Assembly: GCA_963846215.1 (NCBI GenBank)
Contig: CAWJVC010000007.1
Location: forward strand, 27,402 to 91,401
DNA from: an uncultured Acidobacteriaceae bacterium
Lineage (GTDB): Bacteria > Acidobacteriota > Terriglobia > Terriglobales > Acidobacteriaceae
DNA: 64,000 nucleotides
Direction: 5' to 3'
Shown here: piece after piece, positions 15,856 to 34,259 of the stretch
Layout: each line of letters begins with the position of its first letter
Position numbering within the stretch: position 1 is the stretch's first letter
Made by a program: the position numbers and the translations under genes
The notes under the pieces: generated by a model
Databases searched by the model: none
Told to the model about the DNA's origin: nothing
What the model saw: the letters and a program-made list of their open reading frames with translations, nothing else

Positions 15856-16041
15856 GAGTTCGGAGTCCTGTTGAAAAACTATTCTAGCGGGGAAGTGGGT
15901 TGGGTGTGGGTAATCGGGAGGGCACGGCCTAGCGGATAGCCGAGCATTGCAGCCGAGGAGCGATTGTGGGTGTCGCATGTGCGGGTACGACGAAGAGCAA
16001 GTCTTTCGAAATATTCCGCGGCTACCATCGAGGCTGTCATC

Positions 16042-19017: not shown

Positions 19018-19049
19018 GAGCCCCGGTCATTCGATCGGGGCTCTTTATT
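19018..19049 (+). terminator. Intrinsic terminator
   Basis: GAGCCCCG (19018-19025) pairs with CGGGGCTC (19036-19043), followed by TTTATT. Confidence 0.75.
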
Positions 19050-19201: not shown

Positions 19202-21580
19202 TTGTTTAGAATAGGGGATTCGTCTAACCTTGGCAGGGGATTCTTGCGCTGGACGAAATTTGCCTTGGAACAGTCCAATCACAAATCCGACGAGTCGGTT
19301 CGAACGGCGCCAACGGTTTATTGGCGCGTAGAAGGCAGCCTGCTCGATCTCACGGTGGTGAAGCCGGTAGCCTTCTTCACCTGGAACGCTCAGACATTTT
19401 CGGAGCGCTTTCGGCGGCGAGGGCTAATTTTCCTAATGGCGGTGCTGCGTCCTTTTCTTTACTCCACCAATCGGAAGTTCGCGACACGGGTGGTGCATAC
19501 GGCGTTACGGGGGGTAACGCGCGATCGACTGGATCTGCTGGGCGAAGAATATTTCCAGTACAAACTAAAGCCCCAGTTGAAGGCGCGGGGAGTGGAGCGC
19601 GTGCAGGAATTGGTGCGCTCAGGTGCGGATGTGGTGCTGGTCAGCCAGGGACTCGAGCACGTGATGAAGCCTTTGGCGTTGCATCTGGGGGTGAAGCGCA
19701 TCGTTGCAAACCGCCTGGAGTTTCGCGATGGGGTGGCGACCGGAAGGTTGCTGGAGCCGATCATTCGTCCGCGCGGGGCGTTCGCGCCGATTCGCGACCA
19801 AAGTCCCGATGGACGGCGGGCTCCGAAGACGTTGGCTCGGCAATTGGATATCACACTGGAAGAATTGAAGGCCGCGGTGATTGAGTCCGAGCGGGAGTCG
19901 CCGGCGCAGGAACGCCCAATTGTTCATTTCGAAGGCAAGCTACAGGAAGCGGGATTTTCAGTACGACGGGCGCTGGCGGATAAGCACGTGATGTTGATCG
20001 GCGTTACCGGGTTTATCGGGAAGGTGTGGCTGGCCAATACGCTGATGCAATTGCCGAAGATCGGTCGAATTTATTTGCTGATCCGGCGGCAGAAATCGAA
20101 TCCGGCGCAGCGGCGGTTTGAAAAAATTGTAGAGGAGTCGCCAGTCTTCGACCCGCTATTCGAGAAATATGGAATTGGGCTGGCGGAATATTTGCGAGAA
20201 AAAGTTGAGGTGGTTGAAGGGGACGTCACGCGCGAAGAGTTAGGACTGGATGCGGAAGTGGCCAGACGGCTGAAGAGAAATCTGGACTTGGTCATCAATA
20301 GTTCGGGATTAACGGACTTCAATCCTGACTTGCGGGATGCCCTAGCGACCAATACAGACGCGGCGATGAACATTCTGGAATTTCTGCGCGCGACGGATCA
20401 TGCGGGTTTACTGCATCTCTCTACATGCTATGTGGCAGGAGAGCGGGACGGACGTGTACCGGAGAAGGTGATCCCAAATTACACGCCGCATCACGTAGCG
20501 AATTTCGACGCCGAGCAGGAGTGGCGGTCGCTGCAGGAATTAATCGCGAAGGCGGAGGCGAAGGCGGAGGGCGCGGATGTTACGGCGGACTTGCGATCGC
20601 AATCGCTGGCCAAGGAACATGCGTCGAAGGCTTTACAGGGCGCGGCGTTGGAAAATCAGATTCGCAAGAACCGGATTCGCTGGCTGAAGACGTACCTGAC
20701 AGACGAAGGAACGAGGCGTGCCAAGGAATTGGGCTGGCCGAATACTTATACGCTGACGAAGAGCCTTGCGGAATCGCTGATTGTGAAGTATGGCAAAGGG
20801 TTGCCGATTGCCGTGGTACGTCCGGCGATTGTAGAGACTTCGGTGGCCAAGCCGTTCCTGGGCTGGAATGAGGGCATCAATACATCGGCATCCCTCTCGT
20901 ATCTGCTGGGGACATATTTCCGACAGTTGCCCTCGAACGAGAGCAAGCGGCTGGACATTATTCCGGTGGATGCGGTCTGCGACGGAATGACGCTGATTGC
21001 GGCCGCGATTGTGGAGCGGCGGCACGATGAGTTGTATCAGCTGGCGACCTCGGCGACGAATCCTTGTGATATGGGGCGGTCGATTGAGCTGACATCGCTG
21101 GCGCACCGTAAACATTATCGGGCGCAGGAAGGCCTGGAATCATGGCTACGGCTGCGATTCGATGCGATTCCAGTGTCGAAGACGCGCTATCAGCGGATGT
21201 CTGCGCCAGCGCAGAAGGCGATTGTGAAATCGATTCAGCGGATTATGGCTCCGCTTCCTCTGAAAAAGACTCCGCTGGTGAAAGCGGAGAGAAGTCTGGA
21301 GCGGCTGGAAAAGTTAATTGAATTATTTGAGCCGTTCATCCTGTTCAATGAGCACGATTTTGCAGCGGACAATGTGGAAAAATTATCGCATGCGCTGGTC
21401 GAGGACGAGCGGGACGAATTTGGCTACAAGGCTCGCTTGCTGGACTGGTGGGATTACTGGATCAACGTGCATATTCCGGCGTTGCGAAAGTGGACGTATC
21501 CTTTGATCGAAGGCAGGCCGCTGGAAGCGCGTCCGGCGCGGAGTTTGGAGAATGGGGAGACGGTGAAGACTGGAACTTAG
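19202..21580 (+). CDS. Fusion: degenerate HAD-IB-like domain + fatty acyl-CoA/ACP reductase (NAD_binding_4 + FAR C-terminal domain)
   Basis: Rossmann motif GVTGFIGKVWL, active-site region STCYV...YTLTK, and a long FAR-type C-terminal domain. The N-terminal ~220 aa is HAD-like (VLVSQGLEHVMKPLALHLG). The start codon is uncertain (TTG at 19202 in the ORF track). Confidence 0.8.
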   Translation: MFRIGDSSNLGRGFLRWTKFALEQSNHKSDESVRTAPTVYWRVEGSLLDLTVVKPVAFFTWNAQTFSERFRRRGLIFLMAVLRPFLYSTNRKFATRVVHTALRGVTRDRLDLLGEEYFQYKLKPQLKARGVERVQELVRSGADVVLVSQGLEHVMKPLALHLGVKRIVANRLEFRDGVATGRLLEPIIRPRGAFAPIRDQSPDGRRAPKTLARQLDITLEELKAAVIESERESPAQERPIVHFEGKLQEAGFSVRRALADKHVMLIGVTGFIGKVWLANTLMQLPKIGRIYLLIRRQKSNPAQRRFEKIVEESPVFDPLFEKYGIGLAEYLREKVEVVEGDVTREELGLDAEVARRLKRNLDLVINSSGLTDFNPDLRDALATNTDAAMNILEFLRATDHAGLLHLSTCYVAGERDGRVPEKVIPNYTPHHVANFDAEQEWRSLQELIAKAEAKAEGADVTADLRSQSLAKEHASKALQGAALENQIRKNRIRWLKTYLTDEGTRRAKELGWPNTYTLTKSLAESLIVKYGKGLPIAVVRPAIVETSVAKPFLGWNEGINTSASLSYLLGTYFRQLPSNESKRLDIIPVDAVCDGMTLIAAAIVERRHDELYQLATSATNPCDMGRSIELTSLAHRKHYRAQEGLESWLRLRFDAIPVSKTRYQRMSAPAQKAIVKSIQRIMAPLPLKKTPLVKAERSLERLEKLIELFEPFILFNEHDFAADNVEKLSHALVEDERDEFGYKARLLDWWDYWINVHIPALRKWTYPLIEGRPLEARPARSLENGETVKTGT

Positions 21581-21647
21581 GCTTCGGCCAGTTGCGTGGC
21601 GCAGAGCTCTTTCGACTTCGCACAGAAAAAGGGAACGGAATTATTGA

Positions 21648-22778
21648 ATGGCGATATTTTTGACGGGATCGACGGGATACATTGGGGCGCATGTGGCGGC
21701 AAACCTGCTGCGTGACGGCGCCGCGCTGAATGTGCTGGTGCGGGCGGCGGATGTGGGCGAGGCGGAAGCGAGGCTGTGGCAGGCGCTGCAGTTGCATTTG
21801 GAGTTCCCGCAGTTCTACGAGTACTTGCAAACGCGGGTGCGGGTTTTTCGGGGAGATCTGACGGATCCAGGATTTGGGTTGGGTCGAGATGAATATGATC
21901 GGCTCGTGCATACGACCGACTCCGTGATTCATTGTGCGGCATCGCTGAATCGCAAGTCCGAGAAGAGTTGTCTGAATGTGAATCTGCGTGGAACCCTGGA
22001 AGTGCTGACGCTGGCCCGGCAAGCCGAGCATTATCATGGACTGAGTCGCTTCAGCCTGGTCAGTACGGTGGCGGTGGCAGGGAAGCGGGAGAACGAGGTG
22101 GTCAGCGAAGACCGATCGATTGACTGGAATCGCTCGGATTACGATCCTTATGCGCGAACAAAAAAATTCAGCGAACATATGATGCGAGTGTTGTTGCCGG
22201 AAACGCCGAAGACGATTTTCCGGCCCAGCATCGTTCTGGGTGACAGTCGATATGCAGAGACCACCCAGTTCGATATGGTGAAGGCTTTTGTGTTTCTGGC
22301 TGGACTGCCGGTGCTGCCGTTTCGTGCGACGGACAAGATCGATATTGTGAATGTGGATTTTGTGGCCGACGCGATCTCAACTCTGCATCAGAAGGAGCAT
22401 CCGCAATTCGACACCTATCACCTTTCGTCGGGAAGGGAATCCCAGACATTTCGAGAGATTACGAAGGCATTAGCGACGTCGCAGAATAAACGGGCGCCGG
22501 TTTTTGTTCCCGTGGCAGAACGTCCATTTGCAGGGTCGGTGAATTTTCTAGCGAATCGCAAAGGGTCCGTCGGGAAAGGCGCGTCGCTGATGAAGGTTTT
22601 CATGCCATATCTGGTGTGGAACACGGTTTTCGATAATACGAGAGTGACCACTGAGTTGGGAAAGAAGCCGGTACCATTTTCAGAGTACTGCTATCCCCTG
22701 CTGAAATTCAGCACGGAGAATCATTTCGAATACAAATATCGACCGTGGCCCGCGGCGGTGGGAGGGTCGGCGGCATGA
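21648..22778 (+). CDS. SDR-family NAD-dependent reductase (thioester-reductase/epimerase-like)
   Basis: [19 protein letters not shown], and YARTKKFSE provides the YxxxK motif. Confidence 0.8.
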
Positions 22779-24184
22779 TGGATTTTGTTCTAGAGGCATG
22801 GGTGAGCAGTTCGATCGAGCGCGCCAAGGCGTCGTGGATGTTGGGCGGGGGCAAGCGCTGGCAGCCTGGGCAGAAATTGAAGTTGCTTTTTGCGGGCTAT
22901 AACGGAACGCGAAATATGGGCTCGGATGTTCGCGTGGAAGAAATGTTGCGCCAGATTCGTCACATTCTGGGTGCGGAGCGGGTGGAATTCAGCGTGATGA
23001 GCCAGAATTTCGATTTCTCGCGCGGATACTTTGAAGGAACGAGGCAGGTGCATCTGCCTGACATTTTTCCACCATTTCTAGCGCACGAAGTGCCGCAGCA
23101 CGATGGAGTGGTGGCGTGCGAAGGATCGATGTTCAAAAGCAAGTTTGCCAATGCGCTGACCACGATGATGATTGGCTCGCTCGGAATTGCGGCGGCCCAA
23201 AATAAATTGTCTGTGGGGTATGGAGCTGAAGCGGGACACATGGATCCGCTGGTGGCGAAGATGTGTGCGCGCTATTGCAAGAGTTCCTTCGTAATTACGC
23301 GCAATGAGGAGTCGCGCGGAGTGCTGCGCGAGTTGGGTGTACCGACGGAACTAGGAACGGATACGGCTTGGACGTTCGAGCCTCGTCCGCCAGAGTACGG
23401 ACAGAGCGTGCTGAGAAAAGTTGGCTGGGACGGTAAGACGCCGGTGCTGGTGGTGTGTCCGATTAATCCATTTGAGTGGCCGGTGAAGGCGTCAGTGGCG
23501 AAGTACGCGTTGCGGAGTCTGACAGGAGTTTATAAGGACAGCCACTACCGGACGGTCTATTTTCACAATTCGGGTCCGGCCGCCAAGCAGGCATATCAGA
23601 AATATTGGACTTCGATTGCCAATGCGGTCGATGCCTTCCGCAAAAAGAAAAATGTTTTCGTAATTCTGGCCGCTACGGAGCGTCTGGATGCGCGTCCGGC
23701 TCACCGCATTTCCGAGAAGCTGGGCGGGGTGCCGGTTCTGACTTCCGACGATTACAGCATGTATGAACTGGTGAGCGTGCTGCGGGCTTGCCACATGATG
23801 GCATCGTCGCGGTATCACGGGATCGTGACGTCGATGCCGGGGTTGGTGCCATCAGCGGGGATCACGATGGACGAGCGGATTCGCAATTTGATGCGGGAAC
23901 GGGGGCATCAGGATTTACTGATGACGGTAGATGATCCGGAACTGGAAGGAAAGTTATTAGCTGCGCTGGAGAAATTGAGTCGCGAGGGAGAGGCGATCGC
24001 GACTGGTATCGCGCGGACGGTAGTGAAGAATTTAAAGGTGATGGCGCGCATGGGAGTTTATTTCGAGGAAGAAGTGCGAAGAAGATATCCGGAGTTTGAA
24101 ACCCGGCGCGGAGAGTGGAGTTGGGAGGATTATTTGCCGCCCATGAGTAGAGGCTTGCAGGAATTAGTGGCGGCTTATAACTAG
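22775..24184 (+). CDS. Polysaccharide pyruvyl-transferase-family protein
   Basis: The ATG overlaps the upstream stop (ATGA). [22 protein letters not shown] and [13 protein letters not shown] resemble the PS_pyruv_trans signature regions. Confidence 0.6.
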
Positions 24185-24223
24185 CGGCATCAACTCCTTC
24201 AATACAAATTCCTGTTCAGGTTT

Positions 24224-25894
24224 GTGAATACGACACTTCCATTTATCGGAGACATTTTTGCCCAACTGCAGAGGGCCGCGGATAGGCGGATTCTTGCCGA
24301 AATCCGCGATGGGCAGGTAACAGGCGTCACCGGAAGCGAGCTGCTGGAGCTGATCCGCAGAGCGCGGACTTTTATCGCGTCAAAGGGATTGAAAAAGGGT
24401 GACCGGTGCGGACTGCTCGCCGCCAACAGCATTCGCTGGGTAGCAATGGATTTGGCGCTGATGGCAGAGGGACTGATTGTGGTGCCTCTTTATTCGCGGC
24501 AAGCACCCTCGGAACTGGTGGCAATGATGAAAGACTGCACGCCATCGATGCTGTGTTGCGGAGAGGCAGGGCTACGAGATGGAATCGTGCAGGCTTGGGG
24601 TGAAGCGCCTCCACAGTTTTTATTCGACGAGATTTTTGCAGGTGTAGACGGTGTGCAGTTGGAGCGGCCGCAGGTAGGGAATGACGATCCGGTCGCGGTT
24701 ATCTATACCTCGGGAACTTCGGGTGAAGCTAAGGGAGTAGTACTGACAGCGGGGAATGTTGGATTCATGCTGGACCGGACGGCGGAGCGTTTGGACGCTT
24801 TGATGGCCGCTGCGGCGCGCGCCGAGGGCCAGGATCAAATCTTTCACTATTTGCCATTTACGTTTGCGGCGTCGTGGATTGCGTTGCTGACTTTTTTGAA
24901 GCGGCGGAGCCTGGTGACGATCAACATGGATCTGACCAAGATCGCGAGCGACATGCGAACGGTGGCACCAGACTATTTCTTGAACGTCCCGCAACTGTTG
25001 GAGCGTATGAGACGCGCGGTAGACGAACAGTTGTGGCAGACGGGCGGTGTGGCGCAAGCCATTTATTCGCGCGCTAAAGCGGCCTGGGTTCGAAAACAAG
25101 AGAAGCAATCTAAACCCGGGGACGCGTTGTGGCTGGGCCTGGCAAATCGCCTGGTATTTCCGGCAATCCGGAAGAAAATGATCGGCAAAAATCTGCAGGC
25201 GCTGATTTGCGGGTCGGCGCCACTGAGCGCTGAGACACAACTTTATTTCATGATGCTGAGCGTGCGTGTTCTGCAAGTGTACGGTCTGACGGAAACGACA
25301 GCGATCTGCACGATGGATGATCCGAACCAGGTTGAGGTGGGACGAGTGGGACCGGCGATTGCGGGAATGGAAATGCGGCTTGGGGAGAATGATGAAATCC
25401 TGGTGCGCGGACCCAATATTTTTCGGGAATACTGGAATCGCCCGGAGCAAACCGCTGAAGCCTTACGGGATGGATGGTTTCACACGGGAGATCAGGGTGA
25501 AGTGGATGCGTCGGGAAATTGGCGGATCGCGGGGAGGATCAAGAATCTGATTGTTCTTGGGTCAGGGCACAAGATTTCGCCGGAGCCGATCGAGAATACG
25601 ATTGCGAAACTCTTGCCAGAGGCGCAGCAAGTGGTGGTGGTGGGGAATGGACGTGGATACCTGTCGGCGCTGGTGACGGGGACTGTGACAGAGGAAAGAG
25701 TAAAAGCCGTCCTCGATGCGGTGAACCCGAATTTGGCGCATTACAAGCAGGTGCGGGCCTTTTGTGTGCTGCCGCAAGCCTTCTCGGTTGAAAATGGCGC
25801 ACTGACGGTGAACGGGAAGTTGAAGCGCGATGTGATTTCAGCGCGAACGAAAAATGAAATCGAAGACATGTACCGCGTGAAGCAAGCGGTGTAG
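24224..25894 (+). CDS. AMP-dependent synthetase/ligase (long-chain acyl-CoA or acyl-ACP synthetase type)
   Basis: IYTSGTSGEAKGVVLT, YGLTET, WFHTGDQG, and GKLKR at the C-terminus. Confidence 0.88.
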   Translation: MNTTLPFIGDIFAQLQRAADRRILAEIRDGQVTGVTGSELLELIRRARTFIASKGLKKGDRCGLLAANSIRWVAMDLALMAEGLIVVPLYSRQAPSELVAMMKDCTPSMLCCGEAGLRDGIVQAWGEAPPQFLFDEIFAGVDGVQLERPQVGNDDPVAVIYTSGTSGEAKGVVLTAGNVGFMLDRTAERLDALMAAAARAEGQDQIFHYLPFTFAASWIALLTFLKRRSLVTINMDLTKIASDMRTVAPDYFLNVPQLLERMRRAVDEQLWQTGGVAQAIYSRAKAAWVRKQEKQSKPGDALWLGLANRLVFPAIRKKMIGKNLQALICGSAPLSAETQLYFMMLSVRVLQVYGLTETTAICTMDDPNQVEVGRVGPAIAGMEMRLGENDEILVRGPNIFREYWNRPEQTAEALRDGWFHTGDQGEVDASGNWRIAGRIKNLIVLGSGHKISPEPIENTIAKLLPEAQQVVVVGNGRGYLSALVTGTVTEERVKAVLDAVNPNLAHYKQVRAFCVLPQAFSVENGALTVNGKLKRDVISARTKNEIEDMYRVKQAV

Positions 25895-25920
25895 TTGAAA
25901 CGGAATTAGTTGCGAAGAAT

Positions 25921-26760
25921 ATGACGGTAAAAGAAGGAAAATCCGGCGCCGGGTTGGGAAGCTCTTGCGGCGGCACAGCTCTGTCCTGGACGGTCACGGA
26001 CGGGGTGATTGAACTGGCATTGCACCGCGCGCCTTGCAACGAATTGGGGTCCACGTCTCTGGAGCAATTGGAAATTTTCGTGACGGCTTTAGAGAGTATG
26101 CAAAGAGACGCGCACGCTCTCATTATCTATAGCGAGATGAAGCCGGGATTCTGCGCAGGTGCGGATTTACGCGAACTCTATCAGCGATCGCAGGCGATGG
26201 AAAAAGTTGAAGCGGCGCGGGGGGTTCGTGACTTTCTGGAACGCATTCACCGCGTGCTGAATGTGATCGACGCTGCTCCCCTGACCACGATTGCGGCCGT
26301 GCACGGCGTCACATTCGGGGGAGGATTTGAGTTAGCGCTGGCTTGCGATTTAATTATTGCCGACAAGATGGCACGATTTTGTTTTCCGGAACTGAGGTTG
26401 GGATTGATTCCGGGATTTGGCGGAATTCCGCGCTTGAAGCGCGACCTTGGCAATGCCGTGGTGAGGGACCTTTTGCTTACGGGGCGGAGTTTCAATGCGG
26501 CAAAGGCGCAGCAGATTGGACTGGTTAGTCAGGTGGTGGGCGAGGGTGAAGCCTTGCGAGCGGCGCGGGGAACAGCCGCGCAATTGAAGAAATTCGATAG
26601 GGCTACGGCGGCAGCAGCAAAACAATTTATCAAACCGATCCCGCATGAGGAGTTGCGGCGCGAGATTGATCTTTTTTGCGAATTGTTTGCCAAGCCGGCT
26701 GTCGAAGCTGGACTGCGTAAGTTTGTGGAGAGCGCAGACGCGCAACCTTACTTGCCGTAA
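25921..26760 (+). CDS. Enoyl-CoA hydratase/isomerase (crotonase) family protein
   Basis: FCAGADLREL, AAVHGVTFGGGFELALACDLIIA and FPELRLGLIPGFGG. Confidence 0.88.
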   Translation: MTVKEGKSGAGLGSSCGGTALSWTVTDGVIELALHRAPCNELGSTSLEQLEIFVTALESMQRDAHALIIYSEMKPGFCAGADLRELYQRSQAMEKVEAARGVRDFLERIHRVLNVIDAAPLTTIAAVHGVTFGGGFELALACDLIIADKMARFCFPELRLGLIPGFGGIPRLKRDLGNAVVRDLLLTGRSFNAAKAQQIGLVSQVVGEGEALRAARGTAAQLKKFDRATAAAAKQFIKPIPHEELRREIDLFCELFAKPAVEAGLRKFVESADAQPYLP

Positions 26761-26797
26761 GGAGTAGTAAGCGGCGGGTGGCGACCGCGAGTAGAGT

Positions 26798-26824
26798 GAA
26801 TCCTTCGCTTCGCTCAGGATGACA
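26798..26824 (-). repeat. Short interspersed repeat head (GTCATCCTGAGCGAAGCGAAGGATTC)
   Basis: It is related to the gtcattccgaacggc... heads at 12.5-13.4 kb and lies in the 92-bp gap between the crotonase and ACP genes. A 12-nt fragment, gtcatcctgagc, also occurs at 8423-8434. Confidence 0.6.
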
Positions 26825-26852
26825 TGGCATTGAGGGAAGCACAGAACATTTT

Positions 26853-27095
26853 ATGAAGACTGCCGATGAGACGCTGGACGAGATATTGACCCTTGCGGCG
26901 ACGCATTTTAAAGTGCCGCGCGAAAAACTTTCTCCTGACGATGATTTCTTCAAGACGCTGGGAATTGATAGTTTGCAGACTCTCGATCTGCTGACCAAGT
27001 TAGAGCATCATTTTCACGTGGAACTGCCAGATTACGAATTGCAGGGAGTTTCTGATTTCCGAACACTGGCGGGAAGAATTCAGGCGAGGCTGTGA
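26853..27095 (+). CDS. Acyl carrier protein
   Basis: 80 aa, with LGIDSLQTLDL carrying the phosphopantetheine-attachment Ser. Confidence 0.88.
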   Translation: MKTADETLDEILTLAATHFKVPREKLSPDDDFFKTLGIDSLQTLDLLTKLEHHFHVELPDYELQGVSDFRTLAGRIQARL

Positions 27096-27201
27096 CCAAA
27101 ATCGTCCATTGTTGATTGCAGATTCCAGATCGATTCTTGCAGTTGCGCACAAACCTGAGTTGTGAATCGCCAATCGTCACTCTACAATCAGCAATTCTCT
27201 T

Positions 27202-28911
27202 ATGCTTGATCTCCAAAAGTATAGTTGTCTGGGCGCTGCGCTGCGGGACGCGCTGGATCGCTTTCCAGCAGAAACATGCCTGATCGAGGCGGACCGCGAC
27301 CGCGAGAAGACACGCCTGACGTATTCTGATTTTAAAGAGATCAGTCTGCCACTGGCGCGTGCTCTCGAAGACGCGGGCTTCGATGCCGGGGATCGCACAG
27401 CGATTCTGATGACCAACCAGTCGAAATGGCTGATTTCTGCATACGCGATTTTTTATAGTGGCGGCGTCCTCGTCCCCTTAGATTACAAACTGACTGCCGC
27501 TGAACAGTTGCAACTCCTGGAACACTCGCAAGCCAAAGTGCTCGTCGTGGAATATCACTTGTGGCGAGCGATCATGCAGACGCCGGAATTCCACAATATC
27601 AAGACGAAGTTGGTACTGGTGACTGAAGCGCCATTGGGGGCGGACCTGGCCGGCGGATTTCGATGGGAAGACTTCAAGCGGAAAGGCGCGCCGGATTTTG
27701 TGATGCGGCAGCGGGAAGACGTGGCCTGCATCGTATATTCGTCGGGCACAGGCGGCCGGCCAAAAGGATGCGTGCTGACGCACGAGAATTATCTGGAGCA
27801 GTGCCGCGCTTTGACCGCATGGTATCCATTCTGGCCGGGCGTGCGCTATTTGAGCATTCTGCCGACGAATCACGCGATCGATTTCATGGTTGGATTCATC
27901 GGGCCATTCGTATGTGGGGCTTGTGTGGTCCATCTACGGACGCTGCGGCCGGAGTTTGTGCGCGATGCGTTTGTTCGCTATCACATTACGTACGTTTCGC
28001 TGGTGCCCATGATCGTCAAGAACCTGGAGCGCGGACTGAGAGCGAAATTTGATGAGCTGCCGTCATGGAAGCGCACGATTCTGAACCGGCTGATTTCGCT
28101 GAATAGACTGCTGACTCGAGGACGACCCCGCGTAAGGGTGAGCCGAACGTTGTTACCGCAAGTGCATCGCGCGTTTGGTGGAGAGTTGCTGGCGTTAATT
28201 ACAGGCGGGGCTTTTATGGAACCCTCTACCATGCAGTTTTTCTACGATCTGGGGATTCCGGTGGTGAACGGATACGGGCTGACGGAGGCGGGCACAGCAC
28301 TTACATTGAATGACTTGAAACCGTTTCGCGCGGACACGGTGGGCAAGCCGCTGCCGGGAGTGGAGCTGAGAGTCTTGAGCCCGAATGAAGAAGGGATTGG
28401 GGAAATTGCGGCGCGAAGCAAGACGGTGATGTCACATTATCTGAACGATCCGGAGTTGACACTGGAAACGATCGTCGACGGCTGGCTGCTGACGGGCGAT
28501 CTGGGAAAGTTCGATAAGAGCGGCCATCTACAGCTTTTCGGACGCAAGAAAAATATGATCGTTACGGAAGGGGGCAAAAATATCTATCCCGAGGATGTTG
28601 AAGCGGTATTCGACGGATTGCCGGTCAAAGAATATTGCGTATATGCGGCGAACTATGTGTGGGGGCAAAACGGGTCGGGACGGGAAATGTTGATGATAGC
28701 GCTGCGACTCGAACAGAATCAGGCATTCGACAGCACGCTCTTGCAGGAGATTGTGAGTCGCAACCGACGGTTGGCAGATTATAAGCGTGTGGGCGGGTAC
28801 TTGATCTGGGAGAAGGATTTTCCCCGGACTGCTTCAATGAAGATCAAGCGACAGGCGCTGGCGGAAGAAATCGGCAAGACAGTGAAACGGGAAACGGTGA
28901 TCGGACTGTGA
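27202..28911 (+). CDS. AMP-dependent synthetase/ligase (second copy)
   Basis: [30 protein letters not shown], and ASMKIKR at the C-terminus. Confidence 0.88.
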
Positions 28912-28947
28912 TGGCGGCATCGTTGGCGGGAGTAAAGCAAAAAGCGC

Positions 28948-29853
28948 GTGATTGACTCCTATCTAGCCATCGTGAATCCTGCCGCGGGGGGCGGCCGCAG
29001 CCGGAAGATGCTAGGGCCGGCTCTCGAGCGATTGAGAGCAAGCGGATTGGCGGTGGACATCGCGGAGACGCAAGCCGTTGGCGATGCCACGCGGATTGCG
29101 CGAGAAGCGTTTGGCGCGGGTCGACGTAAGTTTATTGCGGTTGGCGGAGACGGGACCTCGTATGAAGTGGTGAATGGGCTTTTTCCTGAGGCTGGCCTTT
29201 CGGGTGAGCGGCCTACGCTCGGGTTCTTGCCATTGGGAACGGGAAATTCTTTTCTGCGTGACTTCAGTGATCGAGGAGTGGAGCATGCCATCGAGTCGCT
29301 CATCGCGCAGCGGAAGCAATCATGCGACGTGTTACGACTGCGCCACCGGTCTGGGGTGATTCATTACATCAATCTGCTGAGCGTGGGATTTCCGGCTGAT
29401 GTGGCTACTTTGAGAGCACGGCGATTCAGCGGTCATGGAGAATTCGGGTACGTCGTTTCAATTTTCCTGGGGCTCGCGCGCTTACGAAGGCGTCCATTTC
29501 CCGTCCGAGTGGAGGACGAAGAGGAGTTCGACCGGCGACGTTGTCTTTTTCTCACATTCAATAACAGCAAGTTCACAGGCGGTACGATGATGATCGCGCC
29601 GAAGGCGGAGGTAAACAGCGGGCTGATTGAATACGTTCGGTGGGGTGCAATCGGACGCATGGGCTTGATGCGCAACTTGCCAGGACTTTACGATGGGACT
29701 CACATCGAGCATCCGTTGGCGGAGAGACGCGCGGTGAGTCGGGTGGAATTCGATTTGAATGAGCCCGTGGATGTGATGGTCGATGGAGAAGTTTTGACGC
29801 TGCAGTGCGAAGAGTTAGACGTAATGCCGGCGGCGCTGAGTGTTGTGGCTTGA
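28948..29853 (+). CDS. Lipid kinase, diacylglycerol-kinase catalytic-domain family (YegS/BmrU-like)
   Basis: NPAAGGG, AVGGDGTSYEVVNG and LPLGTGNSF. Confidence 0.85.
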   Translation: MIDSYLAIVNPAAGGGRSRKMLGPALERLRASGLAVDIAETQAVGDATRIAREAFGAGRRKFIAVGGDGTSYEVVNGLFPEAGLSGERPTLGFLPLGTGNSFLRDFSDRGVEHAIESLIAQRKQSCDVLRLRHRSGVIHYINLLSVGFPADVATLRARRFSGHGEFGYVVSIFLGLARLRRRPFPVRVEDEEEFDRRRCLFLTFNNSKFTGGTMMIAPKAEVNSGLIEYVRWGAIGRMGLMRNLPGLYDGTHIEHPLAERRAVSRVEFDLNEPVDVMVDGEVLTLQCEELDVMPAALSVVA

Positions 29854-29889
29854 GCGGGAGCAAGAGACGGGACACGCGGAAAGGGAATC

Positions 29890-30315
29890 ATGTCTGAGAA
29901 GCGACGGGAGCAGCAGCAAAAACGGATAGGCGTTCAAGAAGCTAAACCTATTTCGCGGAAGATGCTGATGTGGGTGGGCATTGCGGTTTTATTTGCCCTC
30001 GCATGGGCGGGTGGCTGGTACTACAAGAACCATCGCTACGACGGGTTCGCAAAGTGCCTGGCTACGAAACAGGCGAAAATGTATGGCTTGTACTGGTGTC
30101 CGCATTGCGCCGAGCAGAAGGAAATGTTCGGCAAAGCTTTTCAGTATGTGCCGTATGTCGAGTGTGCGATCAAGGGGTCGCGCGAGTTGGCTCCGGCATG
30201 CAAGGCGGCGGGGGTCAAGTTATTTCCTAGTTGGCAGTTTGGCGCGAATCCGCCGAAAGAGGGGGTATTTCCCATGGAAGAACTCTCCGATAAGACGGGA
30301 TGCGCCCTACCTTGA
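29890..30315 (+). CDS. Membrane-anchored thioredoxin-like protein (VKOR partner domain)
   Basis: One TM helix (MLMWVGIAVLFALAWAGGWYY), then YGLYWCPHCAEQKEMFG with a CxxC motif. Confidence 0.75.
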   Translation: MSEKRREQQQKRIGVQEAKPISRKMLMWVGIAVLFALAWAGGWYYKNHRYDGFAKCLATKQAKMYGLYWCPHCAEQKEMFGKAFQYVPYVECAIKGSRELAPACKAAGVKLFPSWQFGANPPKEGVFPMEELSDKTGCALP

Positions 30316-30776
30316 GCATTCCCTCAGATCAAATTGATGCATCTAACTCCAACCCCGCGAAGAGCACTATTCTTTTTGTACTCATCGCGGTCCTGGCGCT
30401 CGCAGGGATGACCGTATCGGCGATATCTCTGCAGAGGCACTACGCCAAATCGGCGTCAGCCTTCTGCGATTTTGGGGAAAGATTCAACTGCGACATCGTG
30501 AATCGCAGCGAGTACTCGAGTCTGATGGGAATTCCGGTGGCTGGAATCGGAGTGGCCGGGTATGGATTGCTTTTGGTCCTGGCTACGGCTTATCGATCGC
30601 GCAGGGAAACGCCGCTTCGCCTTCTACTCGCGGCAATGGCGGGGCTGGGTTTCGCGCTGTACCTGACCTATGTGGAGGGGTACGTGTTGGACACGTGGTG
30701 CATTTTGTGTTTGAGTTCGCTGGCGCTGATCTCGGGGATAACGGTGCTGGCTGCAGTGGTGAAAGTGCGTCAATAA
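30300..30776 (+). CDS. Vitamin K epoxide reductase (VKOR) family protein
   Basis: It overlaps the upstream gene by 16 nt. There is a loop Cys pair (CDFGERFNCD), CILC in the last TM helix, and 4 TM helices. Confidence 0.8.
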   Translation: MRPTLSIPSDQIDASNSNPAKSTILFVLIAVLALAGMTVSAISLQRHYAKSASAFCDFGERFNCDIVNRSEYSSLMGIPVAGIGVAGYGLLLVLATAYRSRRETPLRLLLAAMAGLGFALYLTYVEGYVLDTWCILCLSSLALISGITVLAAVVKVRQ

Positions 30777-30788
30777 TAACGAGCTTGT

Positions 30789-31661
30789 GTGACTGGTTAC
30801 CATTTTTCGATGGCAAGTGCGCAGAAATTCGAGATGCAAGCTGCAGCGGTTGGCGATGTGATTCGCGCAGGCGGGGCGACGGGAGATTTGCGTCTGCATC
30901 ATTTTCGCAGCCGGATATTCAAGAACACTCGATTCCTACGCGTGTGGCTGCCGGCCGGTTACGACGATCCGCAAAATGAGGCCCGGCACTATCCTGTCCT
31001 TTATATGAATGACGGGCAAAATCTGTTTGAATCGTCGACCGCTTTTGGCGGGGTGGAGTGGGGAGTGGACGAGACGGCGGATCGGATGATTCGCGACGGA
31101 GCCATCGCTCCCATGATCATCGTGGGTATTGATAATACGGGAAAAGACCGGATGCGCGAATATATGCCGCACCGATCGATGCACCGGATGATGCTGCGAG
31201 TGCAGGGCCGACATTATCCGGATTTCCTGATCAAAGAAGTAATGCCGTTTGTGGAGGGTACGTATCGGGTGGCCACGAGTCCGGAGAGTACAGGACTGGG
31301 AGGGTCGTCTCTAGGTGCTTTGATTGCTTTATACACGGCGATTGTGCGACCGGGCATCATTGGGCGGCTTCTGCTGGAGAGTCCTTCGCTGTGGGCATCG
31401 AACCGTCAAATTATCAAAGACAGCCGTAAGGCGAGAATTTGGCCGGAGAGGATGTTTCTGGCTGCGGGGACAGCTGAGGCGGGAGACCCGGAACGCAGTC
31501 GCACGGTGGTGGATGATGTGCGAGAACTTTCGGCGATCATGAGGCGGGCTGTGCTTAGCGAAAAGCGATTGCGGATGGTGATTACAGAGGGTGCGGGACA
31601 TACGGAGTCGGCATGGGGCGAGCGCTTCCCAGAAGCGCTGCAGTTTCTCTTCGGCGCGTGA
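30789..31661 (+). CDS. Putative esterase (esterase D / enterochelin-esterase-like alpha/beta hydrolase)
   Basis: YPVLYMNDGQNLF, and GLGGSSLGAL forms the nucleophile elbow. Which ATG is the exact start is uncertain. Confidence 0.7.
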   Translation: MTGYHFSMASAQKFEMQAAAVGDVIRAGGATGDLRLHHFRSRIFKNTRFLRVWLPAGYDDPQNEARHYPVLYMNDGQNLFESSTAFGGVEWGVDETADRMIRDGAIAPMIIVGIDNTGKDRMREYMPHRSMHRMMLRVQGRHYPDFLIKEVMPFVEGTYRVATSPESTGLGGSSLGALIALYTAIVRPGIIGRLLLESPSLWASNRQIIKDSRKARIWPERMFLAAGTAEAGDPERSRTVVDDVRELSAIMRRAVLSEKRLRMVITEGAGHTESAWGERFPEALQFLFGA

Positions 31662-31715
31662 ATGCCGAATACTTCGTCGCAGATTCGCTGCGCCGCGAAG
31701 ATTGCAGAAAAAGAT

Positions 31716-32940
31716 CTAAACGGTCGCTGACTCCCGCCTGATTTTCCAAATCAAATAGAGGGTGGCTGTCATTACGGGGACCGAAAGCTGTACGTGTGTC
31801 CAACGTGCTAGTGGTCCGAGGAGTGGCAGTACGAAGACGAGATAGAGGAAGACCTTGAGCTGAGGAGCTTCCGGAAAACGCGGATGAGCCAGGATGAAAT
31901 CCGCAAGCAATAGGAGTGCAGGGGCAAGTATGACGAGGTCGTAAACAGTGAGGTGTGGCGCGATAAGGACGGTCGCCAGCAGCAGCGCAGAGAATCGCAA
32001 CGAAAGCGCGGTGCGGCCACGCCAGCAAGCGATGGTTAACGCAGAGACCACGACCGCGCTGACGAGGTAGAGCGCGAAAGAAATTGTGGGCGAAGGAACG
32101 AGCATGCTCCAGAATGTGCGCAGGCAGTGCGTTTGATAAGGCTTGGGCTCGAGGCAGCGGAAGGAGATGCGGAGCCTCCATTAGCCTCTTAAACCACTCG
32201 TGAATCGGACGAATCCCGTAGTAAAGAAATGCGGCGAAGAGTTGAGCGGCAGCGGAGAGTGTTGCGCCAGCGATGACCCTCCAGCGAAGAGTGATCAGGA
32301 AGACGAGGGCCGCGGCGAGTGCCAGTTGTGGCTTGAACAGCAGACTTCCGAGAGCAAGGCCGGCAAGGAATTCGCGTTTCGACCGAAAGGCAAAGAAGGT
32401 CAACGTGAAACAGGCGAGAGCTAAAGCGGAAGTTTGTCCCCAGGCGACCAAATGCCAGAAGGCAGGGAAGGCAACCGCGAGAATAAAAACCGTGAGCCAG
32501 TAATTGCGCAGGTTTGGGCAGACACGCCACGCGGCGTAGCAGCACACGGCATACGTGAGCTTGCTCAAAGAGAGCCAGAAAAGCAGAGCCCAGGGATAGG
32601 GCAATCGGGCAAACGGTGCGAAGAAAATTGAAACCTGTGGGGGGTAGAGCGGCAGGTAACGGATGCCAGCGGCGGCCGGAACGCGGTGCGCCGCGAGTTC
32701 TGACTGCGCTTGCATGTTATAAAGATCGGCGCCGCGGTGAGCCAGGGCGAGAGAGCCTAGCGTATAGAAATGAAGGAAGTCCGTGCCTTTGAGGTTGGAG
32801 GAGCGATCAAGCAGGCCGGGCGTGGCCATGTTCCAGATATAGACTGACCACAAGGCGAGTGCGAGGATGATGCCGTGGGCACGCAGGCGTTTCGCGGTCA
32901 TCCACGAACTCGCACGAGTAATCGGCATCGGTTCGCCCAT
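31716..32940 (-). pseudogene. GT-C-type membrane glycosyltransferase (DUF2029/GT87-like) with one frameshift
   Basis: The N-terminal ~270 aa (KGTDFLHFYTLGSLALAHRGADLY...) lies in the frame of ORF 31582..33027. The hydrophobic C-terminus (SFRCLEPKPYQTHCLRTFWSMLVPSPTISFALYL...) lies in the frame of ORF 31716..32105. The junction is near 32130-32160. Confidence 0.65.
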
Positions 32941-33062
32941 GATACGCAAGATGAATCGAAAATACAGGTCCATAGCGTAAAGATAGAGTGGCAGAGTTAA
33001 ACACGATAATCGCCTGTGGCGAACCACATTTTTAATGTTTTGGGTAATTGGTCAGGGAGCCG

Positions 33063-34259
33063 ATGGCAAAGGCCTTAAACGAGGAACGAAGACCGTGGGT
33101 TTGGATGACTCGGCCGGTGTGGATCTTTCTGTTCGCGTTTATTTCGCGTATCGCGGTGATGGGTGTTCTCGCAGCAAACAATAAATTATCGTGGGGAGCC
33201 AACGAATTGGGAGCAATTGCCCGGGCGCTGGTGGAAGGGCATGGATTCTCTTTCGCGTTTCACGATGCAGCCGGACCGACCGCCTGGTTTGCTCCTGGCT
33301 ATCCTGTGTTGCTTGCCTGCGTTTTTCGGATTTTCGGCATCGAAACCAGAATTTCCGCAATGGTGGCAATTTTTCTTAACGTGATTTTCGCCTCCATGAC
33401 GGCATGGATTCTGGTTCAGTTGGGCAAGGAACAATTCGACGAAACCACAGGAGTCGTTGCAGGATGGGCGTGGGCACTGGCACCTCCTCTTTTATTCATG
33501 CCCTGGATACCTTGGGAAACATGCCTTTCAGCCTTGGCGTTTGCCTTTTGTCTTTTGACAATACTTCGACTGGACGCGACTTCCAGTTTGTGGCAATGGA
33601 CAGGTTGCGGGTTCACTTGGGGTGCTGCGGCACTGGTGAATCCGGCGATACTGGCACCACTTCCAGTACTGATTGTGTGTGCCGCAGTTCGAAGTCGCCG
33701 TTGGAAGGGCGTGGCGGTTATGGCCACGGTTTGCACGCTGTGCATTCTGCCTTGGACGGTGAGGAATTTTATGGCACTTGGGCGCGTTGTGCCCGTACGC
33801 AGTAATTTTTGGCCCGAGCTTTATTTCGGAAATGTGGACTTCTCGCTGCATCCGTTAGGTACGAGCATGTTGTATCAACAGGAAGGAGAGGGTCCTTTTA
33901 TTGCCGAGATGAAGGGCCGAGCGCTCAACTTTGTACGAACGAATCCGGGCGCATTCTGGCGGCTCACGGAAAAACGCGCGGTCGCATTCTGGTCGCAGCC
34001 GCCGCAACTGTGGCCGTATCCCTGGGTGCTTTTTCTGATGACGTTGGGAGGTATTGTCGAGAGTGTACGGCGCCGGAAACGGTGGGTAGAATTTTTGTCG
34101 GTATTCTTGCTTTACCCTCCGGCATATTACGTAACTCACGCCTTTTCGCGCTTCCGGTATCCGATTGAGCCACTGATGTATGCATTGGCCGCGTATTTTG
34201 TATGCAGGGGATTGAAGGGAATCTCCGAGCAGAGTTGGCGGCGATTGGACAAAGTGTAA
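33063..34259 (+). CDS. GT-C-type membrane glycosyltransferase (ArnT/PMT, GT39-like)
   Basis: The ATG at 33063 has AGGGAG upstream. The protein is multi-TM, with an N-terminal pattern FISRIAVMGVLAANNKLSWGANELGAIARALVEGHGFSF typical of ArnT-like enzymes. Confidence 0.6.
   Translation: MAKALNEERRPWVWMTRPVWIFLFAFISRIAVMGVLAANNKLSWGANELGAIARALVEGHGFSFAFHDAAGPTAWFAPGYPVLLACVFRIFGIETRISAMVAIFLNVIFASMTAWILVQLGKEQFDETTGVVAGWAWALAPPLLFMPWIPWETCLSALAFAFCLLTILRLDATSSLWQWTGCGFTWGAAALVNPAILAPLPVLIVCAAVRSRRWKGVAVMATVCTLCILPWTVRNFMALGRVVPVRSNFWPELYFGNVDFSLHPLGTSMLYQQEGEGPFIAEMKGRALNFVRTNPGAFWRLTEKRAVAFWSQPPQLWPYPWVLFLMTLGGIVESVRRRKRWVEFLSVFLLYPPAYYVTHAFSRFRYPIEPLMYALAAYFVCRGLKGISEQSWRRLDKV

Follow-up and report, generated by a model that had tools for sequence, protein, structure and literature searches.

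Genes 1-8 (19202-29853) of an array of co-directional genes in an uncultured acidobacterium probably act together as a single operon that makes a non-canonical lipid. The product would most likely be a reduced, phosphorylated and unusual membrane lipid made from fatty acids. In our reading, a fatty-acid-derived alcohol or diol may be linked by a ketal or an ether to a PEP-derived C3 unit before being phosphorylated. If true, this route is a lipid biosynthesis not previously described; our literature search found no paper describing an operon of genes 1-8, the nearest systems on record being the Myxococcus elb operon and the lipid pyruvyltransferase DxpH.

Gene content and layout

The window (the whole 64-kb stretch of DNA analysed) carries 11 same-strand genes at 19202-31661 in its list of open reading frames (Table 1). 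The original prediction spoke of twelve, but its own list sums to 11; the co-directionality, gaps and overlaps that it described are all present. Reading the sequence places an ATGA overlap at the reductase/transferase junction (22775-22778), which we take as coupling of the two genes and thus as support for one pathway, and a 16-nt overlap at the Trx-like/VKOR junction (30300-30315). The remaining intergenic gaps measure 12-106 nt. Pfam and NCBIfam searches backed each domain family named earlier. The start of gene 1 is ambiguous, either TTG 19202 or TTG 19244 preceded by AGGGGA, and alignments with its orthologues begin only at residue 9-40.

Table 1 Genes of the array, with positions in the window and supporting matches
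Gene	Feature	Position	Strand	Evidence
1	HAD-IB-like (degenerate)::FAR fusion, C-terminal 'Sterile'	19202..21580	+	PF12710 43.8 bits, PF07993 178 bits, PF03015 37.8 bits
2	Thioester reductase, stand-alone SDR, NAD_binding_4	21648..22778	+	PF07993 148 bits
3	Pyruvyl-transferase-family enzyme, GT-B fold	22775..24184	+	PF04230 (PS_pyruv_trans) 32.6 bits, cut-off 25.3
4	Ligase 1, acyl-CoA-synthetase-type, FadD11-like, AMP-binding_C_3	24224..25894	+	AMP-binding
5	Crotonase-family enoyl-thioester hydratase	25921..26760	+	ECH_1 145 bits
6	Dedicated acyl carrier protein (ACP)	26853..27095	+	PP-binding 48.7 bits
7	Ligase 2, adenylating	27202..28911	+	AMP-binding
8	YegS/DAGK-family lipid kinase	28948..29853	+	DAGK_cat + YegS_C; TIGR00147 120.7 bits, cut-off 118.65
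9	Trx-like protein, membrane-anchored, WCPHC, 141 aa	29890..30315	+	Sequence; no family match (Pfam, NCBIfam)
10	VKOR-family quinone-dependent disulfide oxidoreductase	30300..30776	+	PF07884 88.6 bits
11	Cytoplasmic alpha/beta hydrolase (esterase), CE1/IroE-like	30789..31661	+	PF00756

Conservation of the lipid module

Genes 1-8 are a real conserved module. Their order in the window is kept in 61 of 63 full-length Terriglobia species loci, and all 11 genes are present in 56 of the 63, with the first eight confirmed in order; because the order recurs so often, the arrangement is far beyond chance. In a phylum-wide sample of 401 genomes, genes 1-5 are kept in 13 of 13 orthologous loci and genes 6-8 in most. 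Genes 1-5 also occur in each orthologous locus of four more distant acidobacterial families. FAR, thioester reductase, transferase, ligase 1 and crotonase are an inseparable core, within which the transferase, ligase 1 and crotonase genes are adjacent in every orthologous locus. The original prediction had staked its case on synteny in relatives; order proved conserved in the Terriglobia loci and the distant families alike, and its picture of a conserved lipid-type cluster with enzymes for acyl activation, an ACP of its own, a pair of thioester/acyl reductases and a kinase of YegS type held up. So did its statement that this is not a sphingolipid cluster, because Pfam and NCBIfam searches found no PLP-dependent serine palmitoyltransferase in it.

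Loci of the distant families sometimes gain FabH, DUF4199 and PlsC genes, the FabH and PlsC additions occurring in Blastocatellia plus one other class. The PlsC acyltransferase gene comes after the YegS kinase gene in other classes, adjoining it in two distant loci. All named carriers are MAGs of uncultured peat and soil Acidobacteria, and no cultured ether-producing Acidobacterium is among them.

These patterns bear on a reading that we consider very improbable, in which an 'NRPS-like' A-T-R system makes, in place of a membrane lipid, a diffusible small molecule or secondary metabolite of the fatty aldehyde, alcohol or diol type. The module is patchy, found in 15 of 401 sampled Acidobacteriota, as might suit such a metabolite; ligase, carrier and NAD_binding_4 reductase follow the same A-T-R logic as carboxylic acid reductases and NRPS-like clusters, and the sole characterised lipid pyruvyl ketal is on an antibiotic (PMC12964715). 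However, cross-class identity is very high (transferase 63-70%, ACP 68-82%), the loci compared have a fixed gene content without tailoring diversity, transporter or regulator, and the YegS, PlsC and FabH associates are of phospholipid type. A membrane lipid is our preferred product.

Enzymes of the module

Catalytic motifs are intact throughout genes 1-8, with the exception of the HAD domain. Both domains of the predicted HAD-FAR protein were confirmed, but HAD motif I reads WRVEGSL in 14 of 14 orthologues and the domain is catalytically dead because its nucleophile Asp is lost. A search for relatives of this domain returned only fragments of the same HAD::FAR fusion. The FAR part retains GxxGxxG and YxxxK. 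The thioester reductase carries a YARTK motif and has as its closest solved relatives the MxaA terminal reductase, a PKS TR and the R domains of carboxylic acid reductases. Ligase 1 always lies immediately 3' of the transferase gene; among solved structures it is closest to CoA ligases (malonyl-CoA synthetase, FadD13, FadD5), not to FAALs. Both ligases have an intact P-loop and A10 Lys, all orthologues of the crotonase retain the catalytic Glu pair (GGGFE, FPE), and the kinase has a GGDGT motif. The ACP scores under the AcpP equivalog cut-off, and its DSL serine is invariant across orthologues. Ligase 2 adjoins the ACP wherever it is present and is probably its loader; together with the reductase they would make a split A-T-R set resembling a carboxylic acid reductase. 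Inspection of the lipid-enzyme sequences revealed no membrane or export signals.

The original prediction had treated the pyruvyl-transferase-like enzyme as a decorating activity; it belongs instead to the invariant five-gene core. Its AF2 model is a GT-B fold (pLDDT 88.5), for which the best folds in a viral library are WcaK-like pyruvyl transferases. PDB fold matches are generic GT-B enzymes, and a PDB sequence search gave no match. Across the phylum its identity is 63-94%, and residues R176, R346-x-H348 and R368 are invariant. By motif pattern and spacing, not by alignment, they form a putative PEP site like that of CsaB (R148, R306-x-H308, K328; PMC10435577).

Proposed pathway and alternatives

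We infer all chemical steps from family membership. Ligase 1 would activate fatty acids to CoA thioesters and ligase 2 would load them onto the dedicated ACP, after which FAR and the MxaA/CAR-type reductase would take the activated chains to alcohols. The transferase would then use PEP to O-link a C3 unit to the reduced chain at its hydroxyl(s), and the YegS-type kinase would phosphorylate a remaining or new hydroxyl, giving a phospholipid-type precursor that PlsC may acylate in some lineages.

Two chemistries use every core enzyme. The one that we tentatively favour leads to a ketal: the crotonase may provide a 3-hydroxyacyl thioester, which the reductase would convert to a long-chain 1,3-diol; the transferase would close this to a pyruvate ketal, whose carboxylate ligase 1 and FAR may reduce ahead of phosphorylation. 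Counting against this best explanation, the operon has no acyl-CoA dehydrogenase to furnish the crotonase's enoyl thioester. The ketal route also leaves no free hydroxyl for the PlsC of some lineages; the ether route below accounts for PlsC better.

In the other chemistry, which we regard as unlikely, the FAR alcohol and PEP would yield an enolpyruvyl ether (2-alkoxyacrylate); the ligase would activate its acid, the crotonase hydrate it and the thioester reductase deliver a 2-O-alkylglycerol, to be phosphorylated by YegS and acylated by PlsC. All five core genes, the kinase and PlsC would thereby have roles, and the transferase-ligase-crotonase gene order matches consecutive steps. Both reactions have precedent, since MurA and EPSP synthase make PEP-derived enol ethers and crotonase hydrates methacrylyl-CoA, a 2-substituted acryloyl-CoA. 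Moreover, a search of five carrier genomes (four near-complete, G000 at 70%) found no HGD-D domain of PlsA/Ger type, and hence not the known anaerobic ether route. Against this, we know of no pyruvyl-transferase family member that stops at the enol ether. The family's only demonstrated lipid chemistry is a ketal (DxpH, PMC12964715), and the proposal departs from the current model of bacterial ethers, ester reduction by Ger/PlsA (PMC13274423). It also predicts sn-2 monoethers, and the absence of cultured ether producers among the named carriers speaks against it too. The broader idea of an ether lipid is compatible with the data, and a tie to the known ether or membrane-spanning lipids of Acidobacteria, which the original prediction raised, is conceivable.

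A different ether, of 1-O-alkyl type, would result if ligase 2, ACP and reductase (with an acyltransferase in other lineages) were a split ElbD, the HAD-like domain were ElbB and the transferase had an accessory or non-PEP role. In the summary given by PMC9131029, elbA-E of Myxococcus xanthus comprise ElbD (FAR-like, acyl-CoA synthetase, ACP and AGPAT), HAD-like ElbB, and ElbA/E of the NAD-dependent epimerase/dehydratase family. Compared with that description, our domain inventory fits ElbD, ElbB and ElbA/E; elb-like clusters are reported with elbD in split form and with DAG kinases as neighbours (bioRxiv 10.64898/2026.06.23.733905), and the PlsC genes beside the kinase in distant loci agree. 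Nevertheless, we give this reading little credence: the window's operon has no acyltransferase, and neither a pyruvyl transferase nor a crotonase nor a second ligase figures in elb as summarised, yet all three are invariant core here. The ketal route is the one we retain.

Downstream genes

Bacterial VKOR with a thioredoxin-like partner substitutes for DsbB/DsbA. VKOR occurs in 33 of 41 genomes of the window's family, often in two copies. Linkage of Trx/VKOR and the esterase to the operon is limited to this family. We take the pair for a general periplasmic disulfide-forming module, a downstream neighbour of the operon in the window's family. The esterase, found in 56 of the 63 close loci, directly follows YegS in one relative (L025) that has no Trx/VKOR, and is missing from operons of other classes; it appears to be an optional accessory of uncertain role.

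The original prediction had counted all three as operon members of a lipid pathway, and we weighed a single eleven-gene pathway in which redox chemistry would come from VKOR/Trx and remodelling of the lipid from the esterase. A functional tie is conceivable because genes 9-11 are conserved downstream in the same 56 loci at short gaps (12-36 nt, with one 16-nt overlap); in addition, several carriers encode another, more distant VKOR elsewhere, and the linked copy could be specialised. We nonetheless find such a pathway quite unlikely. The Trx/VKOR pair is separable: some genomes of the same family (L124-L128, L141) carry it but none of the lipid genes, and in Blastocatellia and three other families the operon has no such pair. 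Median identity among the 63 close loci is 65-68% for Trx, VKOR and esterase versus 71-88% for the lipid genes. The anchored Trx-like protein and polytopic VKOR belong to the membrane/periplasm side, unlike the signal-free lipid enzymes, and no lipid link was found for the esterase, a CE1/IroE-like hydrolase. Genes 9-11 are thus neighbours, not proven parts, of the lipid module.

Comparison with known systems

The transferase shares PF04230, the GT-B fold and an N-terminal GY.G..N.G.D motif with the sugar ketal-pyruvyltransferases CsaB, Pvg1p and WcaK, and with CsaB also the Arg / Arg-x-His / basic-residue pattern assigned there to PEP binding (PMC10435577). Unlike these enzymes, it has no glycosyltransferase, flippase or polymerase nearby and is ~470 aa long, with an extra C-terminal helical region; it also falls far under the CsaB equivalog cut-off (61 bits versus 213, E = 1e-16). 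By family and context it is likened to DxpH, another PS_pyruv_trans protein in a fatty-acyl, not polysaccharide, setting, which in vitro uses PEP to close a 1,3-dioxane pyruvate ketal on the diol of a lipid chain (PMC12964715). DxpH, however, tailors a finished PUFA-NRPS lipopeptide (dioxanopeptin biosynthesis) in Proteobacteria, whereas our operon lacks a PUFA synthase/NRPS and couples the transferase to reductases, ligases and a kinase.

Ligase 2, ACP and reductase share A-T-R logic with carboxylic acid reductases (NF041592) and MxaA-type terminal reductases; in contrast to carboxylic acid reductases, the operon splits it over three proteins and adds a eukaryote-like, FAR-type second reductase. 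Genes 9-10 resemble bacterial VKOR/thioredoxin systems in pairing a polytopic VKOR bearing CxxC with a WCPHC protein held by a TM anchor, but here they are two overlapping genes, Trx first, behind a lipid operon.

As far as elb is described in PMC9131029, both systems are lipid operons in which adenylating ligase, carrier protein, NAD(P)H acyl reductase and HAD-like module come together, with an AGPAT-type acyltransferase in some of our lineages. By domain description, the activities united in ElbD lie here on separate proteins, and the HAD-like module, unlike ElbB, is fused to FAR and has no catalytic Asp. The second ligase, crotonase, kinase and pyruvyl-transferase-family enzyme are found in our operon and not in that description of elb.

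A conserved, predicted lipid operon of eight genes

We find at this locus eight conserved genes that form a predicted lipid operon not described before, with a core enzyme of the PEP-transferase family; behind it lie an unrelated-looking disulfide module and a putative accessory hydrolase. ORF listing, Pfam and NCBIfam bore out the gene layout given in the original prediction, returning co-directional genes with the domains it had named between 19202 and 31661. They number eleven rather than the twelve it had claimed, and its own list of genes also sums to eleven. The two overlaps it had described, ATGA at 22775 and 16 nt at 30300, could be read directly in the sequence, and the remaining intergenic gaps measure 12-106 nt. 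Upstream of the operon, a strong hairpin with a T-run closes the preceding small gene. Scanning the cluster itself for promoter- and terminator-like sites gave no excess over shuffled expectation, leaving this upstream hairpin as the only strong one. The HAD-FAR gene has two candidate starts, the annotated TTG at 19202 and a second TTG at 19244. No ribosome-binding site is visible before 19202, 19244 lies a few bases after AGGGGA, and alignment with orthologues begins only at residue 9-40, so translation probably starts further downstream than 19202.

At its 3' end, the operon converges with a GT87-like polytopic ORF that overlaps the end of the esterase gene by 80 nt. This ORF and two further GT-C-like genes are found near the operon in many relatives, in varying combinations. 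EPSP synthase, an enolpyruvyl transferase that serves aromatic amino-acid synthesis, is encoded 3 kb upstream; its gene is probably unrelated to the operon, since it occurs only in the flanks of the closest relatives. Completeness of the genome that contains the window is only 70%.

Features of the locus and of related loci (L-numbers are loci in other genomes, with their own coordinates)
Feature	Position	Strand	Assignment
EPSP synthase gene	14557-15978	-	enolpyruvyl transferase
Hairpin and T-run	19018-19043		end of preceding small gene
Gene cluster	19202-31661	+	eleven genes
Gene 1	start 19202 or 19244	+	HAD-like::FAR fusion; PF12710, PF07993, PF03015
Gene 2	21648-22778	+	stand-alone NAD_binding_4 thioester reductase
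Gene 3	22775-24184	+	PS_pyruv_trans-family protein (transferase)
Gene 4		+	ligase 1, ACSL/FadD11-like
Gene 5		+	crotonase
Gene 6		+	carrier protein (ACP), 80 aa
Gene 7		+	ligase 2
Gene 8		+	YegS/DAGK kinase; TIGR00147, barely over cut-off
Genes 9 and 10, as a pair	29890-30776	+	Trx-like/VKOR pair
Gene 9		+	thioredoxin-like WCPHC protein, 141 aa, membrane-anchored; no family match
Gene 10		+	VKOR
Gene 11		+	alpha/beta hydrolase (esterase), PF00756
GT87-like ORF	31582-33027	-	polytopic
GT-C-like gene	33048-34259	+	
GT-C-like gene	34266-35981	-	
Operon extras, Blastocatellia and class f2	L023 4154-4660 and 10096-11100; L028 13306-14130; L029 14281-15141		DUF4199, FabH, PlsC/AGPAT
Shortened operon, window's family	L019 12402-14742		ends after ligase 2
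Five-gene operon version, family f83	L026 10084-17398		GlgC-like and PilZ genes after the crotonase

Distribution and synteny

The survey of the operon in relatives took the pyruvyl-transferase-like protein as its anchor. This protein is present in 15 of 401 Acidobacteriota species genomes sampled evenly, so the operon is accessory and patchy. Within the window's own family, 7 of the 33 other genomes carry it, and none of 13 in one well-assembled genus. Scanning 185,579 species genomes gave at least 586 carriers. The named ones are all MAGs, mainly from peat, bog and soil, and belong to Ca. Sulfotelmatobacter, Ca. Acidoferrum, Terriglobales and Blastocatellia.

Gene order is strongly conserved where the operon occurs. 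Genes 1-5 stand in unchanged order at all 13 orthologous loci of the 401-genome sample, followed in most by the ACP, ligase 2 and the kinase. Among the best 80 of the at least 586 carriers, 63 loci were full-length. All eight lipid genes keep the window's order in 61 of these 63, and in 56 genes 9-11 are present as well. This result favours the original prediction, which had named a lack of synteny in relatives as grounds for refutation. Median identity to the window is 71-88% for lipid genes 1-8 and 65-68% for the last three genes.

Several loci depart from this pattern. At L019, two phage-integrase-family genes replace the kinase, Trx-like, VKOR and esterase genes, and the operon may have been truncated by a mobile element. 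In the five-gene version (L026 and L024), genes for a GlgC-like nucleotidyl transferase and a PilZ protein come after the crotonase, and a gene of the PEP synthase/PPDK type is found ~5 kb downstream on the opposite strand; its link to PEP use may be coincidence. Two distant transferase paralogues (L030 and L031, 35-40% identity) have unrelated neighbour genes and are uninformative. The operon also appears at 86-88% identity in two MAGs labelled as Verrucomicrobiia by NCBI (L061, DATKQB010000148.1) and as Candidatus Binatus (L055, DATHQJ010000139.1). The genome collection places both within Acidobacteriota, since the same acidobacterial genomes return as their phylum mates, and their labels or bins look wrong. 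We therefore count neither as a carrier from another phylum.

A separable disulfide module and lineage-specific lipid genes

The original prediction had assigned the whole gene set to lipid synthesis. This interpretation is supported in part, for the eight conserved genes; the Trx/VKOR pair is an unrelated-looking disulfide module, and the esterase is a putative accessory. All three genes are missing at the loci of distant carriers, comprising Blastocatellia and three further families. The Trx-like/VKOR pair also occurs without adjoining lipid genes (L124-L128 and L141), and one such genome (G062) scored transferase-negative. Because it is absent at distant loci and stands alone elsewhere, we conclude that Trx/VKOR is a separable disulfide-bond module located behind the lipid operon in the window's family. 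VKOR occurs in 33 of 41 genomes of this family, often in two copies, and falls into at least two lineages. The first is the Trx-like/VKOR pair, 47-81% identical to that of the window and placed behind the operon or alone. The second is more distant (~40%) and has no Trx partner. Second VKOR copies occur in G158, G401, G412-G415, G418 and G421, and several carriers hold both lineages. At L025, which has no Trx/VKOR pair, the esterase directly follows the kinase. Among solved structures, the esterase is closest to hydrolases of the feruloyl/CE1 and IroE-like types.

Some distant loci also contain added genes. A DUF4199 membrane protein follows the FAR, FabH separates the crotonase from the ACP, and a PlsC/AGPAT-type acyltransferase comes directly after the kinase. 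The operon-encoded FabH is full-scoring, at 419 bits against a cut-off of 249.

The core transferase

The 469-aa transferase scores 32.6 bits against PF04230 (cut-off 25.3), a match that covers only profile positions 110-267 and was identical on the genome. Against the CsaB equivalog it reaches 61 bits, under the cut-off of 213, and is therefore not a CsaB orthologue. Identity is 92-94% within the genus, across hundreds of metagenomic variants, and 63-70% between classes. An AlphaFold model from 15 sequences (pLDDT 88.5, pTM 0.88) has a GT-B fold. Its two best matches in the viral structure library BFVD are WcaK-like pyruvyl transferases (E = 6e-11), and its fold matches in the PDB are generic GT-B enzymes at TM ~0.5. 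The alignment contains an invariant N-terminal G-Y/F-x-G-x-R-N-x-G-x-D motif as well as invariant R176, R346-x-H348 and R368. In CsaB, a mutational study assigned PEP binding to R148, R306-x-H308 and K328 (PMC10435577). Searches against PDB sequences with the profile or a single sequence gave no match to the transferase, even at E = 10. Compared with CsaB by motif pattern, the invariant residues of the transferase agree in order and spacing, which is no more than suggestive of a PEP site.

We considered whether this enzyme might mark a polysaccharide pyruvylation locus and ruled this out: the operon has no GT, flippase or polymerase gene, and the downstream GT-C genes vary in strand and between genomes.

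Integrity of the lipid enzymes

The remaining lipid enzymes retain their diagnostic residues. The FAR is recognised by PF07993 (178 bits) and PF03015 (37.8 bits, cut-off 35.4) and contains GVTGFIGK and YTLTK, in keeping with its family; both reductases keep GxxGxxG and YxxxK. The stand-alone reductase has YARTK and scores 130 bits against TIGR01746, under the cut-off of 213. Because its nearest solved relatives are MxaA and the R domains of carboxylic-acid reductases, ligase 2, the ACP and this reductase together resemble an A-T-R unit divided among three proteins. The P-loop and the A10 lysine are intact in both ligases, which are nearest to CoA ligases, not FAALs. The crotonase scores 145 bits against ECH_1, and all 12 sequences compared have its two catalytic glutamates, in GGG(F/L)E and FPE, as expected of a crotonase-type enoyl-CoA hydratase. 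The DSL serine of the ACP is kept in all orthologues. The kinase, at 120.7 bits against TIGR00147 (cut-off 118.65), keeps GGDGT, which reads AVGGDGT.

The HAD-like domain differs from an active HAD-IB phosphatase, an assignment we ruled out from the loss of the nucleophilic Asp. At the motif I position, the window and 13 orthologues read WRVEGSL (14 of 14), and the same 14 HAD-FAR sequences show no motif IV acidic pair ahead of the reductase domain. With DxD replaced throughout and motif IV absent, the domain is conserved yet non-catalytic. When isolated as a query, it returned no stand-alone ElbB-type relative, only fragments of the same HAD-FAR fusion.

A sphingolipid cluster is ruled out, as had been predicted: Pfam and NCBIfam detected no aminotransferase/PLP family in the eleven genes or their flanks, and hence no PLP-dependent serine palmitoyltransferase.

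Candidate products

The conserved genes encode enzymes for activating and reducing fatty acyl groups, all with intact motifs, together with a crotonase, a carrier protein, a member of the PEP-transferase family and a lipid kinase; certain lineages add FabH and PlsC. Beyond this conserved, intact enzyme set, we infer every step. Two routes employ every core enzyme, one through a ketal and one through an ether. In the ketal route, the crotonase would supply a 3-hydroxyacyl thioester, from which the MxaA-like reductase would make a long-chain 1,3-diol. On this diol the transferase, whose gene is translationally coupled to that of the reductase, would close a pyruvate ketal; its new carboxylate may be reduced by ligase 1 and the FAR, and the kinase would phosphorylate the resulting product. 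Such a ring closure has a precedent in DxpH, the one characterised lipid-acting family member, which in vitro uses PEP to convert the diol of a lipid into a 1,3-dioxane (PMC12964715). However, the ketal route leaves the enoyl thioester without a source and PlsC without an acceptor.

The ether route would explain more of the genes. A fatty alcohol from the FAR would be converted by the transferase to an enolpyruvyl ether; ligase 1 would activate this ether, the crotonase hydrate it and the reductase convert it to a 2-O-alkylglycerol, which the kinase and PlsC would turn into a phosphatidate analogue. Crotonase hydrates methacrylyl-CoA, which can serve as a model for the hydration step. The transferase step nevertheless requires chemistry not known for the PS_pyruv_trans-type family, and we consider this route unlikely.

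In the current model, bacterial ethers and brGDGTs arise through ester reduction by Ger/PlsA (PMC13274423; PMC13159169). Among five carrier genomes, of which four are near-complete, we detected no HGD-D domain of the PlsA/Ger type. Enzymes of the known anaerobic ether route are therefore not found there, a result on gene content that does not show ether production. It is conceivable, if distinctly improbable, that the first five genes make ether lipids de novo and without oxygen, by a route that does not start from an ester. The pyruvyl-transferase-like enzyme would join a fatty alcohol to PEP, and activation, hydration and reduction of the 2-alkoxyacrylate would give a 2-O-alkylglycerol with its backbone drawn from PEP. 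Peat Acidobacteria in which no PlsA/Ger-type domain is found would in this way obtain the sn-2 ether bonds of tetraether (brGDGT-type) lipids. We offer the link to ether lipids as a possibility, not a result.

Significance and relation to known systems

The synthesis of unusual membrane lipids in aerobic and peat Acidobacteria is still an open problem, and so is the origin of the ether bonds in brGDGTs, the lipids used as climate proxies. To our knowledge, the established bacterial ether enzymes are only PlsA/Ger and the poorly understood elb/AGPS systems, and the PEP-dependent transferase family is known almost only from sugar pyruvylation. The operon would put this family at the centre of lipid synthesis. 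It occurs in uncultured peat lineages (Ca. Sulfotelmatobacter and relatives) and, being compact, highly conserved and open to experiment, is a candidate for the synthesis of unusual acidobacterial membrane lipids. Whether or not an ether lipid is formed, expression of genes 1-8 in a laboratory host should bring to light a new class of lipid and a new activity of the transferase family.

Full-text literature searches turned up no description of these genes in combination. Among described operons, elbA-E of Myxococcus xanthus comes nearest, and the two inventories overlap. In elb, ElbD combines FAR-like, ACS, ACP and AGPAT domains, ElbB is HAD-like, and ElbA/E belong to the NAD-dependent epimerase/dehydratase family (PMC9131029). 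Clusters resembling elb, with a split elbD and neighbouring DAG kinases, have been described in Acidobacteriota and Poribacteria (bioRxiv 10.64898/2026.06.23.733905). The operon studied here has its activities on separate proteins in place of a multidomain ElbD. Pfam and NCBIfam found no acyltransferase domain anywhere in 19202-31661, and a separate PlsC occurs only in the distant loci. The HAD-like domain of gene 1, a possible counterpart of ElbB, forms one protein with the FAR and has lost the nucleophile. Because a multidomain ElbD is absent, and because the pyruvyl-transferase-like enzyme, the crotonase and a second ligase are found in the window's operon and none is described for elb, we do not file the system as an elb member; its shared inventory suggests that it works like elb in part.
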